DNA of 63,947 nucleotides, the filler included, from Malassezia furfur (Eukaryota): assembly GCA_052055015.1 (NCBI GenBank). It is 6 parts of 6 records of this genome, joined end to end, with 100 filler letters (N's around TTAATTAATTAA, not from the genome) between each part and the next. Parts side by side here need not be neighbours in the genome. Positions count along the whole stretch, not along the records: positions 54,373 to 63,947 come from JBQJIT010000417.1; 5 more parts are not named here. One strand, written 5' to 3'. The notes under the pieces were generated by a model. That model made no database searches and was not told the DNA's origin. It worked only from the letters and a program-made list of their open reading frames with translations. Of this stretch, positions 54,474 to 61,067 are shown in pieces; position 1 is the stretch's first letter, and the number at the start of each line of letters is the position of its first letter. The position numbers were made by a program, and so were the translations under genes.

Positions 54474-57050
54474 CTACTTGGCCGTAAAGAACCACGTACC
54501 GGTGGGCTTGGGCGGCGAGGCGGCACGCGCCGGTTGCGCGCCCGTATGCGCCGGCGGCGCTCCGCCGCCGCGCAGCGGCTTGGCGATGCGCCCAAACGGC
54601 AATGGCTCGCTCTCGCTCAGCGGCGCGGCGGCCGGCGCGGCGATCGGCGCGCGCCCGGCGTACAGCTCATCCTCGAGCTGCTGCACACGCTCGTTGCGCG
54701 CCGCAAGCCGGCGCTCGGCCGCACCAAGCTCGCTCTTCAGCGCACTGTTCTGCTCGACGAGCCGGCGCTGCACGTTGCTGAGCTGCTCGAGGTGCCGTTC
54801 CAGCACGCCCATTTTTTTCTGCTGCGTCTTGAGCGCGAGGTTGTGCAGCACGACATGGTACTGGTCCTGCATCTCCTCGAGCGTCATCTCCATCGAGACG
54901 ACCTTTTCGCTGCGCTCGCGCAGGCCCTGCATGAGCTGCTGCTTCATCCGCTCGTACTCCTGCAGCCGCATCGTGACGAGCTCGCGCGCCTTCTCCATCT
55001 GCGACGAGGCGTCCACGAGGCGCTGCACCACCGCAGGGTCGACGTTGCCCTGCGCCACGAGCGAGTCAGTCAGCAGCCGCATCGCGTGCCGCTGCTCCTC
55101 GTGCGAGGTGCGCAGGTCGTCGAGCGAGCGCGAAAGCGTGTCGGTCTCTTCGGAGCGGATCGCAAGCAGCTGCTCAAGGTGCATCACCTCCGTCGAGGTG
55201 TTGAGCTGTGTCGTGGCCGTGTGCTCCTCGAGCAGCTGGCGCAGCGACGCCAACTCACTGCCCGTCTCGTCGCCGAGACGGAACCCGTGCTCGAGCGCGC
55301 CGATGTGGTCCTTGATCAGGTCGTAGCGCTGCTGCAGCGCCGCGTACTGGTCGCTCAGCGCGGCCTTTTGCTGCTGCACCACCGTCGTCTCTTGAGCGGC
55401 GATGCGCGCGGATTGCGTCTGCTGCGCGAGCGCCGCGTGCTCCTCGACAATCTTCTCGCGCAGCAGCGCCAAGTCGGCCTGCTGCTCGGCGTGGCCGTGC
55501 GCGGCCAGGCGCGCCACCGCGTCTAGCATCGCATCGACGCCGGGCCGGTGCTCGAGCGCAAGGTCCGCAAGCATCGCCTCGAGCCGCTCGGCGTGCTCGA
55601 CCGAGGCCCGCGACTGCGCCGCCGCCGCCGCGTGCGCGTCGAGCTCGGCGCGCGCCGCATCGCGTTGGGCCGCCGCATCGTCCCGCGCACACACCAGCTC
55701 GTCGACGCGCAGGCGCAGCGCACTGTGCTCGGCCTCGGCCGCACGTGCCTGGGCGGTGGCCGCCGTGGCCTGCTGCCGCGCCTCGGCGAGCTCGGCACGC
55801 AGCGCGGCGAGCTGCGCATCGTGCTCATCCTCGCGCACGGGCGACGCCGCGCGCGTCGGCGATGCACCGCGCACCGGCGACGCGGCGCGCAGCTTGCCCC
55901 ACCGGCTCTCGGGCACGGTGCGCCCCGCGCGCCACTCGTCGAGCTCGGCCTGCAGCGCGTCGGCGTGTGCGCGGTACGTCGCGGCCTGCGCGGACGCCTT
56001 GCGCAGGAGCGCACGCAGCTCCTCGGGCGCGAGCTCGGCGTTGACGCGCGCGTTGTTCTGGATCGACTTGGCCCGCACGCCGAACCGCAGCGTCGACAGC
56101 GTCTCGTCCGCATTGTAGGCCGTGGGCGAGCAGTTCACGATGAGCGTCGTGCGCGAGTTGCCGCCGAGCGACTCTTGCAGGATGCGCGTGAGCTTCGAGT
56201 CGCGGTACGGCACGTGCGACGACTTGCCGTCGGTGAGCGCATTGATCACCATGCCGAGCGCGCTCAGGCTGCGGTTGATCTTCTTGGCCTCCTCGAGCGT
56301 CTGACCGCTCGCGCCCGTCTTGCCGACCTTTTCGGAGCCGGCCAAGTCCACGAGGTACAGCGCGCCGCTTTTGGCCGCGCCGGTTTCGGTGCTGCGCTGT
56401 TGGATGGTGAAGACCAGGATGCTGTGCGAGCGCGACGACTCGGTGTTCATGCGCGTCGATGCGACCGCGCGGTTGACACCGCCCTGGTGCAGGATCTGAA
56501 ACACCTCGTGCGCACTGCTCACGTAGTACTCCGACAGGCCCTGCACATACACACCGCGCGTGCGGTCCTCGTGCACCTGCAGGTTGTCGCGCTCGGGCAC
56601 GAGCAGGTCGCGCACACGCTCCATATAGATCTCCATGTACGACACCTTGACCAGGTACTCGACCGTCGGCGGGCTGTGCACGATCGCATGGAAGATTTGG
56701 TCGGCGATGCGCGGCGTAATGCCGCGCAGCTCGTCGTCGGCGAGGTCGGGGCCCATCATCGTGTGCGTCTTGCCCGAGCCCGTCTGGCCGTACGCAAAGA
56801 TGGTGCCGTTGTACCCCTGCAGCACGTCGTCCACCGTCTGCTTGATCCCATACTCAAACACGTCCACCTGGCGCGCGGTGCTCGGAAAGACGCGGTCAAA
56901 CGTAAAGGTGCCGGCCGCCTCGGCGAGGCGCGGCAGGCGCACGGTCTGCAGGTCGTCGATCGCCACGACGACCTCGCCATCGCGCTCCGCGCCGCCCGCC
57001 GGCACGCTCGGCGGGCGGAAGCGCGCGACCACCTTGACGTTCGCGGCCAT
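54474..57050 (-). CDS. Kinesin-1 (conventional kinesin heavy chain)
   Basis: NVKVVARFRP, YGQTGSGKT, SSRSH, LVDLAGSEKVGKTGASGQTLEEAKKIN and tail GRIAKPLRGGG (IAK motif). Confidence 0.95.
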   Translation of the reverse strand: MAANVKVVARFRPPSVPAGGAERDGEVVVAIDDLQTVRLPRLAEAAGTFTFDRVFPSTARQVDVFEYGIKQTVDDVLQGYNGTIFAYGQTGSGKTHTMMGPDLADDELRGITPRIADQIFHAIVHSPPTVEYLVKVSYMEIYMERVRDLLVPERDNLQVHEDRTRGVYVQGLSEYYVSSAHEVFQILHQGGVNRAVASTRMNTESSRSHSILVFTIQQRSTETGAAKSGALYLVDLAGSEKVGKTGASGQTLEEAKKINRSLSALGMVINALTDGKSSHVPYRDSKLTRILQESLGGNSRTTLIVNCSPTAYNADETLSTLRFGVRAKSIQNNARVNAELAPEELRALLRKASAQAATYRAHADALQAELDEWRAGRTVPESRWGKLRAASPVRGASPTRAASPVREDEHDAQLAALRAELAEARQQATAATAQARAAEAEHSALRLRVDELVCARDDAAAQRDAARAELDAHAAAAAQSRASVEHAERLEAMLADLALEHRPGVDAMLDAVARLAAHGHAEQQADLALLREKIVEEHAALAQQTQSARIAAQETTVVQQQKAALSDQYAALQQRYDLIKDHIGALEHGFRLGDETGSELASLRQLLEEHTATTQLNTSTEVMHLEQLLAIRSEETDTLSRSLDDLRTSHEEQRHAMRLLTDSLVAQGNVDPAVVQRLVDASSQMEKARELVTMRLQEYERMKQQLMQGLRERSEKVVSMEMTLEEMQDQYHVVLHNLALKTQQKKMGVLERHLEQLSNVQRRLVEQNSALKSELGAAERRLAARNERVQQLEDELYAGRAPIAAPAAAPLSESEPLPFGRIAKPLRGGGAPPAHTGAQPARAASPPKPTGTWFFTAK

Positions 57051-57101
57051 GGCCCCCAGCAACCCCCCGCGCGGCGCTGACTAAGCTTGTTCGCGACGGC
57101 G

Positions 57102-58000
57102 ATGGCCTCGACGACGTACGAAGCGCGCGCGGCCCGGCACCCGAACGCGTGTGCCAAGCAGCTGCTTACCACCCTCGTCGAGAAGCAGTCGAACCTGTGC
57201 GTGAGCGTGGACGTGACCCGCAAGGAAGACCTTCTCGAGATCGTCGACACCGTCGGTCCGTTCGTCGCCCTCGTCAAGACCCACATCGACATCGTCGAAG
57301 ACTTTGACTGGGACCTCATCGAGCAGCTCTCGGCGCTGAGCATCAAGCACAAGTTCCTCATCTTTGAGGACCGCAAGTTTGCCGACATCGGTACGTCGCC
57401 CGTCCTCGCCTTGCTCACCCAGGAAACACGGTCAGCCTGCAGTACGCGGCCGGTGTGCACCGCATCGCCCACTGGTCGCACCTCACCAACGCGCACCTGA
57501 TCCCGGGACCGGGCATCATCTCGGGCCTTGCGTCGGTCGGCACGCCGCTGCAGCGCGGCCTCTTGCTTCTGGCCGAAATGAGCACCAAGGGCAGCCTCAC
57601 CACCGGTGCTTACACCACCGCCAACGTCCAGGCAGCGATGCAGGACGAGTCCGACTTTGTGATGGGCTTCATTGCGATGCACCGCGTGCACGAGGACCCG
57701 GCGCACATCCCCCCGGGTGCGACGCCCGCCCAGCGCGCCAAGGACCTGCTCGTCCTCACGCCGGGCGTCGGCCTCGACACCAAGGGCGACGGCAAGGGAC
57801 AGCAGTACCGCACGCCGCACGAGGTCATCCACGACAGCGGCTGCGACGTGATCATCGTCGGGCGCGGCATCTACAGCGCGATGCTCGCCAAGGACATTGA
57901 GCGCGAGGAGGCGCTCGTCCAGGTGCGCTCGCAGGCGCAGCGCTACCGCGACGCGGGCTGGCAGGCGTACCTCGCGCGCATCGGCGCACAACGTACGTAG
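57102..58000 (+). CDS. URA3: Orotidine-5'-phosphate decarboxylase (intron 57391-57422)
   Basis: [40 protein letters not shown]...GQQYRTP, IIVGRGI. Confidence 0.97.
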
Positions 58001-58027
58001 ACGCTAGTCGCAACCTCTGACCCGCAG

Positions 58028-59224
58028 CTCGGCGCCGCTCGGCGCGCCACGCGACCCAGGCGCCGCCCCTCGCGCCCGCGCCCCAGACGCCCACGCGCGG
58101 TGTGCACACGCGCGCGCAGCGCTCGCCGCCCTCGCCAGAGGTCAAGCCGGAGCCCAAGGTGGAAGAGGAGCTCGACGTGCTCAAGGAGACCACCGTCGAG
58201 GTCGACGTCGGCGCAGCCTCGCGCGACTCGCCGCGAAAGAAGATCAAGATGGAGCTCACCGAGGACGAGAAACGCAAGGTCAAGGTGCCGAAGCACTGGC
58301 GCGAGGTGTACGCGCTGCTCTCTCAGCAGCGCGACGAGATCATCACCCCGGTCGACACTATGGGCTGTGAGGAAAACGGCCAAGAAGACCGCCGCGCGGA
58401 CCGCGGGCGCGTCGGCGCGGACGGACAGCGCGAGTCGGACGAGGAGATGGCGCGCCGCCTGCGCTTCACGACCCTCGTTAGCCTGATGCTCAGCTCGCAG
58501 ACCAAGGACCCCGTCACGGCCGACGCGGTGCACAAGCTGCAGACGCGCCTGCCCAACGGCCTGTGCCTTGCGTCGCTGCTCGACACGCCCGACGACGTGA
58601 TCCAAGAGTGCATCGCCAAGGTCGGCTTCTTCCGCCGCAAGACCGAGTATTTGCGCCGCGCCGCCGAGATCCTCCGCGACCGCTTCGACGGCGATGTGCC
58701 CCGCACGATCGACGACTTATGCTCCCTGCCGGGCGTCGGGCCCAAGATGGCGTTCCTGCAGATGCAGAGCATGGGGCTGAACGTCGGCATCGGTGTCGAC
58801 ACGCATGTGCACCGCATCTCGAACCGCCTGGGATGGTGCAAGACCAAGACGCCGGAGCAGACACGGCTGGCGCTCCAGAGCTGGCTCCCGGTCGACGTAC
58901 GTGCCCCGCTCACACAGCTCCATCGCGTCATCAACAAGCAGATGGTCGGGTTTGGACAGGTGATCTGCGTGCCGGTCGGGCCGCGCTGCGAGTAGGTCGC
59001 CACACTGACACAGCCTGTGCGCCATTGGCAAGGCACGCCGGTGCCCGTCGTATCGCAAAGTCGACGAAAAGTCGCGCACAAAACGTGTACCTATCTACTA
59101 CAAGGACGGCACCGTCGATGCAGGGTACGGCCGCATCCCGGTCGCCAAGCAGGAGGCCATCAATGCGCTCTCCGACGAGGACCAGAAAATAGAGGCCGCG
59201 GCGCAGGACGCCCTGGCGTGGTAG
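58028..59224 (+). CDS. NTH1: Endonuclease III-like DNA glycosylase/AP lyase (introns 58897-58917, 58992-59013); 5' end is a splice acceptor
   Basis: PVDTMGC, LMLSSQTKD, HhH motif LPGVGPKMA, VDTHVHRISNRLGW and Fe-S motif CVPVGPRCDLCAIGKARRCPS after splicing. Confidence 0.92.
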
Positions 59225-59275: not shown

Positions 59276-61067
59276 ATGCAGCCCGGCGCACGTCCGCCCC
59301 GCCGCCCACACGAGCGCCGCGCACCAAAGCGCCCAGAGGCAGAGGCCCAGACCGACGACCACGCCAATGCCGAGACACAGCCCGAGGCCCACGACGGCGC
59401 GGACAACGTGCTGAACCGCGCAGCGCTGTCGCTCGCAGGCCATGCGCTGCCGCCGCGCAAGGCGACGGCCAAGACGCTCGCCCAGTTTGCGCAGCTGCGC
59501 CGCCTCGACCTGTCAGATATGAAGCCATCGGACGAGTCGCCGGAGGGGCTGACCGACCTGCGCATGCTCACGCAGGCCGCCTCGCTCTCCAAGAAGCACG
59601 CCAAAAAGACACAGACCACGCCGCTCACGCAGCGGCTCACGTGGCTCAACCTGTCAAACAACGCGGCGCTCGGCCGCGACGACGACGCGCTGGACGGCAT
59701 CGAGCTCCTGACGGCGCTCAACGGTACGTGCTCTGCCTCACCCAGTCTTGAACGCGTCGCACTGTGCGCTGCGCACCTTCCCGGCCGGCATCGCGGCGCT
59801 GGAGCAGCTCAAGGCACTCGTTTTTTCGCACAACCACATCGCGCAACTGCCGCCCGTCTTTCCCCACCTCGCGGAGCTCAACACCCTCGTGCTGTCGCAC
59901 AACGAGCTCGTACACCTCCCCAAGACGCTGCCTGCGTCGCTGCCCAACCTCAAGAAACTCAGCCTGAGCCACAACCAGCTTACCAATGGCGAGACGCTGC
60001 CCGACTTTAGCGTCTGTGCGCACCTGCGCGAGGTGCGCCTGAGTGGCAACGCCTCGCTCGCACGGCTTCCCGAGCACATCCAGCGCTGGGGCCGCGGCGT
60101 CGACGGCGGCGCGCCGGGCCTCGTCCTGTTGGACGTCGGCGATTGTGGCCTGGAAGACTGGGCGAGCATTGCGCCGCTTTTGGCGCACAGCGACTCGCGG
60201 CACAAGGGGCTTGTAAACCTGTGCCTCAAGGGCAACGGCGTCGCGGCGCGCGACGACTACGAAGAGCGTGTCCGTGCCGCATGCCCTAGCCTGCTGGTCC
60301 TCGACAATGTGCGCCTGCGCCCGAAAAAGACGGAGAAACCGGCCAACGAGCCGCGGGCATCGTCGCCCGCGCCGGACGAGGCTAAGGCGGCGCCCGAGCC
60401 CTCGACGCCGGTCCCCAAGGAGAGCGCGCCACGGCCCAAGGCCAAGCGCGCTTCCAGGGACGAGGGGCGCACCGGCGACACTCCGAAATCCGCGCCCGCG
60501 TCCCGGAAACGCGAGCGCGAAGAGAGCGGGGGCCACGAGGATGCCCCCACGCGCCCCGAGCACCCGCCCGAGGAGCGCGAGAAAAAGGCGCGGAAGCGGA
60601 GCGGCCGCGGCCCCAAGAAGCCCAAGGCGGTGGATAGTGAGCAGGCACGCCTGCTGGCACGGGCGGGCCCGGCGCCGGGCGACGTCGAGGACCTCGACGA
60701 CGAGCCGAGCGTGTCGCGGTACGATGGCGCCTCTGACGAGGATGCACGGCTCCGTGCGCGCGCGGGACCGCCGCCGGAGGAGGATGCGTCGGCGGCGCCG
60801 CCCGCGTCCGGCCGCACGAAAAAGACGCGCCGGAAAAAGAGCCACCGGCCGGTCGAGCTGACCATGGACATGGCGGCAGAGCCGGCCACGGCGCCCGAGA
60901 CCTCGGCGGCCCCTACACCTCCATCGCCGCCGTCGCTGCCGTCGCCGCCGGCACCCAAGGACACGGCGGCCGACACGGGCGTGGTCGACATTGTGCAGGT
61001 GCGCAAGCCGCCGCGCTCGGCGCCGCTCGATCTGGGCCGCCGCGACGAGGATCTAGGGGGTTGGTAG
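59276..61067 (+). CDS. Leucine-rich repeat protein with basic/charged disordered tail (intron 59724-59745)
   Basis: Repeated LxxLxLSxN units and a K/R-rich C-terminal half. Confidence 0.85.

Follow-up and report, generated by a model that had tools for sequence, protein, structure and literature searches.

In Malassezia furfur, the URA3 gene for orotidine 5'-monophosphate (OMP) decarboxylase is followed on the same strand by NTH1, the gene for the DNA glycosylase endonuclease III, and the two are probably joined in a real and conserved fusion that depends on splicing. The locus occupies positions 57102 to 59224 of a stretch of 63,947 nt joined from six parts of GenBank assembly GCA_052055015.1 (hereafter, the window), within the part that comes from JBQJIT010000417.1, and all positions given here count along that stretch. 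The stop codon of URA3 lies inside a candidate intron of 35 nt whose removal would carry the URA3 frame into NTH1. An initial annotation of the window had proposed as much. Its proposal is strengthened by intron signals that recur in four of four Malassezia species, by a first acceptor AG that keeps the frame in three of the four, by an NTH1 extension that looks coding and has no ATG, and by eight gene models that carry both domains.

URA3 and NTH1 would thus form one splice-linked locus in which positions 57993-58027 act as a spliceosomal micro-intron carrying the URA3 stop codon. Where this intron is retained, or the RNA ends early, translation would stop at the TAG and release free OMP decarboxylase of 283 amino acids, ending in ..QRT. 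Where it is removed from an RNA that runs through NTH1, the URA3 frame would continue through a basic linker of ~74 residues and give an OMP decarboxylase-DNA glycosylase fusion of 670 amino acids. Splicing in the window would necessarily extend the URA3 frame into NTH1, because any RNA that contains the donor includes at least the 3' part of URA3. In this species, splicing would also be the only route to translation of the conserved N-terminal part of NTH1 (RRRSARH ... SPRKKIK), since no ATG occurs in that part and its frame is closed by a TGA three codons upstream. From RNAs with their 5' ends past 57883, an NTH1 of 311 amino acids would be made, starting at the ATG at 58249. The unspliced product appears to matter too, as is suggested by the TAG, which in all four species takes the first place in the intron at which an in-frame stop can stand. 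We infer the use of the splice from the sequence, as we do anything that concerns the ratio of the isoforms or a function of the fused protein.

The Candidate Intron

The 3' end of URA3 reads ...CAA C|GT ACG TAG, with the stop codon TAG at 57998-58000. The bases after the break form a donor, GTACGT (57993-57998), and are followed by a branch-point-like CTGAC (58017-58021) and an acceptor CAG (58025-58027). The stop codon is thereby included in the first eight bases of the element, GTACGTAG. The element also holds a TGA (58018-58020), which closes the NTH1 frame upstream. When 57993-58027 is removed, the C at 57992 joins the CT at 58028-58029 to make a Pro codon, and the translation reads ...IGAQ-P-RRRSARHATQAPP...EVKPEPK...SPRKKIK-MELTEDE... 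into endonuclease III. The computed product is an open reading frame (ORF) of 670 amino acids that contains both domains and no internal stop. The coordinates first assigned to the URA3 end, the donor, the branch point, the CAG, the TGA, and the ATG at 58249 are correct base for base, and translation confirms that a canonical 35-nt candidate intron encloses the URA3 stop and leaves an in-frame join when it is removed.

The window contains 11 matches to the pattern to which this element belongs, GTACGT-N5-35-CTRAC-N1-12-YAG, whereas dinucleotide-preserving shuffles of the window (n = 100) give 0.27 on average and never reach 11 (0/100). For GTACGT by itself, the count is 79 and the expectation 20.7. 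At 35 nt, the element at 57993 is longer than any of the other ten matches, which have 21-28 nt, and this length was counted inside the intron range of the genome, in which URA3 intron 1 has 32 nt. In the curated annotation of M. sympodialis, the mean intron is 30 bp long (PMC5389616, Table 2).

The codon usage on the two sides of the element is consistent with its removal. In a window with 64.7% G+C, the frame upstream of 57993 has a G+C content at third codon positions (GC3) of 0.89 for at least 199 codons; with the element taken out, the frame goes on for at least 200 codons more at a GC3 of 0.92, and with the element in place it closes after only 2 codons. Across the other ten pattern matches, a frame with a GC3 of at least 0.75 on both sides continues over the removed stretch in six, a control that is only partly clean in that nearby introns cut the reading frames and the six of ten were read by eye. 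Since the canonical signals persist at a single site in four species amid surroundings that drift, it is quite likely that the 35-nt element is a real spliceosomal intron. The sequence GTACGTAG contains TACGTA, which formally fits the TAYRTA efficiency element of yeast 3' ends; such an element would not explain why a branch point and an AG are kept as well.

Conservation in Other Malassezia Species

A scan of metagenome contigs yielded four Malassezia loci that represent three further species, namely L001 and L004 (the same species; G+C 0.62), L002 (0.52), and L003 (0.57). In all four, NTH1 directly follows URA3 and shares its strand. Among the 80 metagenome loci, this order was found solely in these four Malassezia loci, 29 of the other 76 having an upstream flank of at least 1500 nt. 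The URA3 of the window is 72-82% identical to that of L001-L004 over residues 2-283 (tblastn); it is colinear with the URA3 of its relatives over the full length, and its C-terminal tail falls at the same place as theirs.

In each of the four species (the window, L001, L002, and L003), a phase-1 donor N|GTACGTAG makes the URA3 stop bases 6-8 of the intron, and a CTGAC or CTAAC branch point is followed by an AG. The URA3 tail codons that precede the donor (IGAQ / LAPRS / VQPRN / LAPTSH) and the interior of the intron vary from species to species. Every AG was tried by script, and the first one past the branch point keeps the frame in three of the four species. It lies at 35 nt in the window, where the genomic frames of URA3 and NTH1 are offset by 2, and at 33 nt in L002, where the offset is 0; L003, also with an offset of 0, has AGs at 24 and 27 nt that are both in frame. 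Because these in-frame first AGs occur at differing lengths and offsets, the length of the intron tracks the offset between the two frames. L001, with an offset of 2, has its first AG at 25 nt and out of frame, and L001/L004 need the second AG. The comparison with other Malassezia that the initial annotation called for thus shows shared synteny and intron signals in L001-L004, with the frame kept at the first AG in L002 and L003 and not in L001/L004.

The first intron of URA3 has a different history within the genus. The URA3 alignment is gapless in L001/L004 and in L003, from which the window's intron 1 (57391-57422) is absent, and it is longer and gapped in L002 (307 columns); the alignments span L001:2021-2866, L003:2008-2853, and L002:1876-2796. 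Intron 1 is therefore variable within the genus, whereas the stop-containing element is kept. A second TAG, located a few bases past GTACGTAG (..GCTAGTC / AGTAGCT / GGTAGCT / GGTAGCT), is invariant in the four-species alignment (57993-58015 in the window and the corresponding sites of L001-L003) and falls in different frames depending on the species.

The NTH1 Extension

Between 57881 and 58249, there is no ATG in any frame. The part of this stretch that follows the candidate acceptor nonetheless has the character of coding sequence. A codon table derived from eleven of the window's high-GC3 ORFs gives positions 58030-58248 a score of +0.778 bits per codon in the NTH1 frame and of -0.87 and -0.70 in the other two, compared with 0.79 +/- 0.34 bits per codon for windows inside genes, and the GC3 of the extension is 0.93. 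Its predicted product is basic and rich in Pro, with the motifs RRRSARH, ..HT.., and SPRKKIK. Corresponding motifs (RRS.R(H), ..HT.., and SP.KKIK) are present in all Malassezia sequences that reach that far, and in the four Malassezia DNA sequences they are kept through differing synonymous codons. Their counterparts elsewhere in the Ustilaginomycotina, R(Y)SLRRR and SPRKK.K.IK, are located well within proteins that have 470-570 amino acids. The linker of L001 has a GC3 of 0.79, and the genes of that locus have 0.77-0.79. By codon usage and conserved motifs, the NTH1 extension is coding-like.

How this extension could be reached by a ribosome is constrained by the sequence before it. Between the TGA at 58018-58020 and RRRSARH, there are only the codons CCC GCA GCT, none of which is near-cognate to ATG, and L002 likewise has no near-cognate codon between its in-frame stop and the RRS motif (both read by eye). 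The linker of L003 is also without an ATG. The first methionine of the NTH1 frame, in KKIK-M, is found in 14 of the 14 sequences of alignment A1, with A at -3 and G at +4 around its ATG in four of four species. In the M. psittaci model P0121, this residue is L, and the ATG at 58249 is consequently not a general start.

Fused Gene Models

A protein search with the NTH1 exon returned 5417 homologues. In a search with this exon against proteins longer than 506 amino acids, eight of the NCBI gene models returned carry both PF00215 (OMPdecase) and PF00730 (HhH-GPD). All eight are from Ustilaginomycotina and four from Malassezia: M. psittaci (P0121, 646 amino acids), M. yamatoensis (P0122, 667), M. 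equina (P0124, 570), M. vespertilionis (P0126, 633), Thecaphora frezii (838), Pseudozyma flocculosa (818), Tilletiaria anomala (753), and Violaceomyces palustris (677). A search of longer proteins with URA3 exon 2 found the same eight fused models and no others among the matches listed, the best 120 being listed for each protein search. The models have the same two domains in the same order as the window. Three of the four Malassezia models join them directly before RRS.R (..RIGSQ-H-QRRSARL.., ..RIGSE-H-KRRSARL.., and ..KMGT-T-RRRAARH..), where the window would read ..RIGAQ-P-RRRSARH... The computed fusion of the window is 78.5% identical to both P0121 and P0122 (633 and 662 aligned residues). 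Several other long candidates were rejected. The long or multi-stretch HMMER matches P0382, P0361, P0479, P0462, and P0430 carry, according to Pfam, OMPdecase alone, HhH-GPD alone, or OMPdecase with PRTase/DHODH, and P0241 and P0242 are URA3 with N-terminal ORF extensions and not fusions.

The fused entries in NCBI and UniProt are automatic predictions with inconsistent names ('orotidine-5'-phosphate decarboxylase', 'Ntg2p', 'uncharacterized'), and the searched collection has no fused model for M. furfur itself. Endonuclease III proteins without an OMPdecase domain have been named 'orotidine 5'-phosphate decarboxylase' in M. pachydermatis (P0007) and Tilletia horrida (P0038, P0044, and P0045), which is taken to be a transfer of the name from fused models; if the splice is used, the locus would explain this inconsistent annotation of endonuclease III. 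The initial annotation knew of no description of such a fusion. In the parts of the literature that were searched, no paper describes an OMP decarboxylase-endonuclease III fusion, and one supplement file of PMC5389616 contains no match for orotidine, endonuclease III, URA3, or decarboxylase; fused OMPdecase and HhH-GPD predictions are, however, already deposited in NCBI and UniProt.

A wider interpretation, which we regard as tentative, is that OMP decarboxylase and endonuclease III may have formed a single bifunctional gene since ancient times, perhaps for as long as the Ustilaginomycotina have existed, and that the Malassezia micro-intron with the URA3 stop in its 5' splice site may serve as a switch. 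Where the linker has no ATG, the fusion would be the only source of full-length NTH1.

Alternative Explanations

Several observations weigh against a splice-dependent fusion. All three forward frames are open from ~58021 to 58370, and for this reason the finding that the spliced frame is open and in frame carries only about one-in-three weight by itself. The GC3 of the linker is not gene-like in L002 (0.47 vs. 0.55 in genes) or in L003 (0.42 vs. 0.60-0.70). In L001/L004, which belong to an M. sympodialis-like clade, splicing to the nearest AG (CTGACGCAG|) would remove 25 nt and shift the frame, which then closes after 47 further residues. Only the AG that comes 4 nt later (29 nt) restores the frame at the site homologous to the acceptor of the window (AG|CTCGG), and the M. 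equina model, from the same clade, also needs the distal acceptor. Without the window, which was chosen as being in frame, two of three species are in frame at the first AG, a result that is not significant alone (P about 0.26). At the protein level, no fused ORF from contigs (sources lgn, ena, and jgi) is among the best 120 matches of each of the three protein searches; this is a weak negative, as rare isoforms are lost from contigs. The contig-derived ORFs P0010, P0014, and P0015, which are without the NTH1 introns and evidently derive from contigs of spliced RNA, are not fused, and they begin at MHT.., at MELTADE.. (P0014, at the KKIK-M methionine), or at MKEE... A HMMER search with the fused P0122 against 1.84 billion representatives gave 9076 matches, and none of the best 150 covers both halves. 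An ATG stands just before the motif in M. pachydermatis (MEVRRSTR), in Malassezia sp. CBS 17886 (MAAARRTSGR), and in the NTG1 models of Ustilaginaceae, so that stand-alone NTH1 exists in some lineages. Lastly, in a model from Malassezia sp. CBS 17886 (P0125, 978 amino acids), NTH1 is fused to a homologue of the downstream leucine-rich-repeat (LRR) gene, probably because the gene predictor merged the two, and in M. sympodialis, transcript assembly has been reported to produce fusion artefacts (PMC5389616). As an aside on the two AGs of L001 (L001:2880-2908), use of the first would yield a frameshifted URA3 whose tail has 47 residues and use of the second the in-frame fusion, and the pair may be a tandem alternative acceptor.

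Some of these points would be expected if URA3 and NTH1 were two separate genes, with URA3 ending at its TAG and polyadenylated within ~250 nt and NTH1 starting at the ATG at 58249 from a promoter in or after the URA3 3' end. The element would then be unused or a relic, and the fused models would be predictor artefacts of a compact genome. The conservation and context of the KKIK-M methionine, the start of P0014 exactly there, the missing contig-derived fusions, the out-of-frame proximal acceptor of L001, and the tendency of predictors to merge neighbors in this genus, as seen in P0125, all favor this arrangement. A spacer of 248 nt is also not unusual, since tandem spacers go down to 51 nt (59224 to the ATG at 59276). 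Yet separate genes leave unexplained why GTACGTAG, the branch point, and the AG are kept in four of four species while neighboring codons vary. Nor would a spacer be expected to resemble genes in its codon usage, as this one does in the NTH1 frame past the acceptor, or to encode motifs that are conserved across the genus and common to the longer NTG1 proteins of Ustilaginomycotina, and M. psittaci is without the methionine at which a separate NTH1 would start. Taken together, these observations make two separate genes unlikely. An alternative possibility is that the intron is real and that the spliced RNAs come from an internal URA3 promoter, in which case NTH1 would be translated from an in-frame URA3 methionine, such as the ATG at 57881, and would carry a short URA3-derived peptide with no full bifunctional protein being made. 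The donor, the acceptor, and the frame speak for this arrangement as much as they do for the full fusion. The four ATGs in 57600-58248 (57638, 57662, 57677, and 57881) are all in the URA3 frame, so that translation of an RNA with its 5' end between them would begin in frame. The methionine at 57881, which had been put forward as an alternative start, is nevertheless not conserved (relatives have GALL.. where the window has SAML.., and thus L in its place), nothing marks an internal promoter, and the URA3 promoter itself is the simplest source of RNA that contains the donor. Such a borrowed exon is decidedly improbable.

It is also conceivable that the extension is translated from unspliced RNA, through initiation at a non-AUG codon or through read-through of the URA3 stop. 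L001 has CTG and ACG and L003 has GTG in the stretch from the in-frame stop to the RRS motif, and in L003 the URA3 and NTH1 frames are separated by a single stop. Against this, the CCC GCA GCT of the window and the corresponding stretch of L002 offer no near-cognate codon. Read-through cannot be general, because the frames of URA3 and NTH1 differ in the window and in L001 and because L002 has two in-frame stops. Both mechanisms were rejected as general ones on the basis of these frame offsets, stops, and codons, and we consider them very improbable indeed.

Relation to Known Systems and Implications

Stand-alone homologues of endonuclease III include Ntg1 and Ntg2 of S. cerevisiae and human NTHL1. 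The stand-alone enzymes and the Ustilaginaceae proteins described as 'related to NTG1' (P0127-P0139) have the same HhH-GPD and HhH core and the same four-Cys C-terminal segment as the NTH1 of the window. They also share a long, basic, low-complexity N-terminal extension with motifs resembling SPRKK.K.IK and R(Y)SLRRR. The difference lies in where this extension begins, as the stand-alone NTG1 proteins start at an ATG of their own (in Ustilaginaceae, with an additional RRKLFAP motif upstream), whereas the extension in the window begins at a candidate splice acceptor and is without an ATG.

OMP decarboxylase is likewise part of a bifunctional polypeptide in the UMP synthase (orotate phosphoribosyltransferase-OMP decarboxylase) of animals, plants, and algae, and many proteins with PF00156 and PF00215 were returned by the search with URA3 exon 2. 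The partner in UMP synthase is the preceding enzyme of the pathway, is N-terminal, and is joined constitutively. In the window, the partner is a C-terminal DNA-repair glycosylase, and the join would require removal of an intron that holds the stop codon.

Conjoined or read-through genes, and intron-retention switches in which the retained intron supplies a stop, are a general eukaryotic phenomenon. In conjoined genes, as proposed for this locus, either the upstream protein alone or a chimera is made, depending on a splice that removes the upstream stop. Most described cases are specific to one lineage and of low abundance. In contrast, no fewer than four Malassezia species retain the donor with its built-in stop, and gene models that join the two genes come from several orders of Ustilaginomycotina. 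Mechanisms of this kind, with a stop supplied by intron retention and a chimera with the following gene produced by splicing, are already known; what sets this locus apart is the combination of domains, the stop built into the donor, and the conservation across the genus and possibly the subphylum.

If the splice is used, URA3, ordinarily regarded as a simple marker, would be the front half of a bifunctional protein in basidiomycete yeasts and smuts. Deletion, replacement, or tagging of URA3 in Malassezia, and perhaps in smut fungi, would then affect a base-excision repair enzyme as well, by its loss or its alteration. Phenotypes of URA3 mutants that concern mutation rate or stress could be misattributed, and those who engineer URA3 should check NTH1. 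The locus would also provide a compact example of a stop codon in a conserved 5' splice site through which splicing chooses between one and two enzymatic activities. The coupling of pyrimidine synthesis to the repair of oxidized pyrimidines, which was raised in the initial annotation, is speculation, and any physiological logic in the pairing is pure conjecture. Selection of uracil auxotrophs with 5-fluoroorotic acid is reported not to be possible in M. furfur (PMC5137500); nothing ties that result to the URA3-NTH1 locus.

Anatomy of the Locus and Neighboring Genes

The features of the two genes are collected in Table 1. The translation of 57425-57997 matches PF00215 (E 1e-31, 111 bits against a cut-off of 27), and that of 58030-58896 matches PF00730 (E 1e-21) and PF00633 (HhH; E 9e-9).

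Table 1. Features of the URA3-NTH1 locus, in positions of the window.
Feature	Position	Strand	Basis or remark
URA3 (OMP decarboxylase) exon 1, from ATG 57102	57102..57390	+	joins exon 2 in frame once the 32-nt intron is removed
URA3 intron 1, 32 nt, GTACGT...CAG	57391..57422	+	translation across the removal
URA3 exon 2, to the candidate donor	57423..57992	+	donor after the first codon base (phase 1)
Candidate intron, 35 nt, GTACGTAGACGCTAGTCGCAACCTCTGACCCGCAG	57993..58027	+	donor/branch/acceptor pattern; homologous element in L001, L002, and L003
NTH1 N-terminal extension: CT completing the split codon and 73 codons	58028..58248	+	codon score; conserved motifs
First ATG of the NTH1 frame (KKIK-M-ELTEDE)	58249..58251	+	possible start of a short free NTH1, 311 amino acids
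NTH1 main exon with the HhH-GPD catalytic domain	58249..58896	+	PF00730, PF00633
NTH1 intron, 21 nt, GTACGT...CTCACACAG	58897..58917	+	translation without it gives WLPVD-LHRVINKQMVGFGQ, as in P0010, P0014, and P0015 (spliced relatives)
NTH1 exon	58918..58991	+	translation
NTH1 intron, 22 nt, GTAGGT...CTGACACAG	58992..59013	+	translation without it gives the four-Cys segment CVPVGPRCDLCAIGKARRC
NTH1 last exon and stop (59222-59224)	59014..59224	+	C-terminus ...ALAW matches ...LEW / ...LDW of relatives

The two introns within NTH1 are extremely short for spliceosomal introns, and their branch A lies ~5 nt from the AG. The four-Cys (iron-sulfur) segment that is restored when the second of them is removed has the spacing C-x6-C-x2-C-x7-C, which is the same in other Ustilaginomycotina; the textbook value of the last spacing is x5.

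Both genes have close neighbors. On the minus strand, a kinesin-like gene (ORF 54474-57080) starts at an ATG at 57050-57048, which is 51 nt from the URA3 ATG, and the divergent promoter region between the kinesin-like gene and URA3 (57048-57104) is very small. The LRR gene is next downstream of NTH1, its ATG at 59276 being 51 nt past the NTH1 stop. Fungal endonuclease III proteins from Coemansia, Marasmius, Neurospora, and others are often named 'alpha,alpha-trehalase nth1', apparently as a result of confusion over the gene symbol NTH1.

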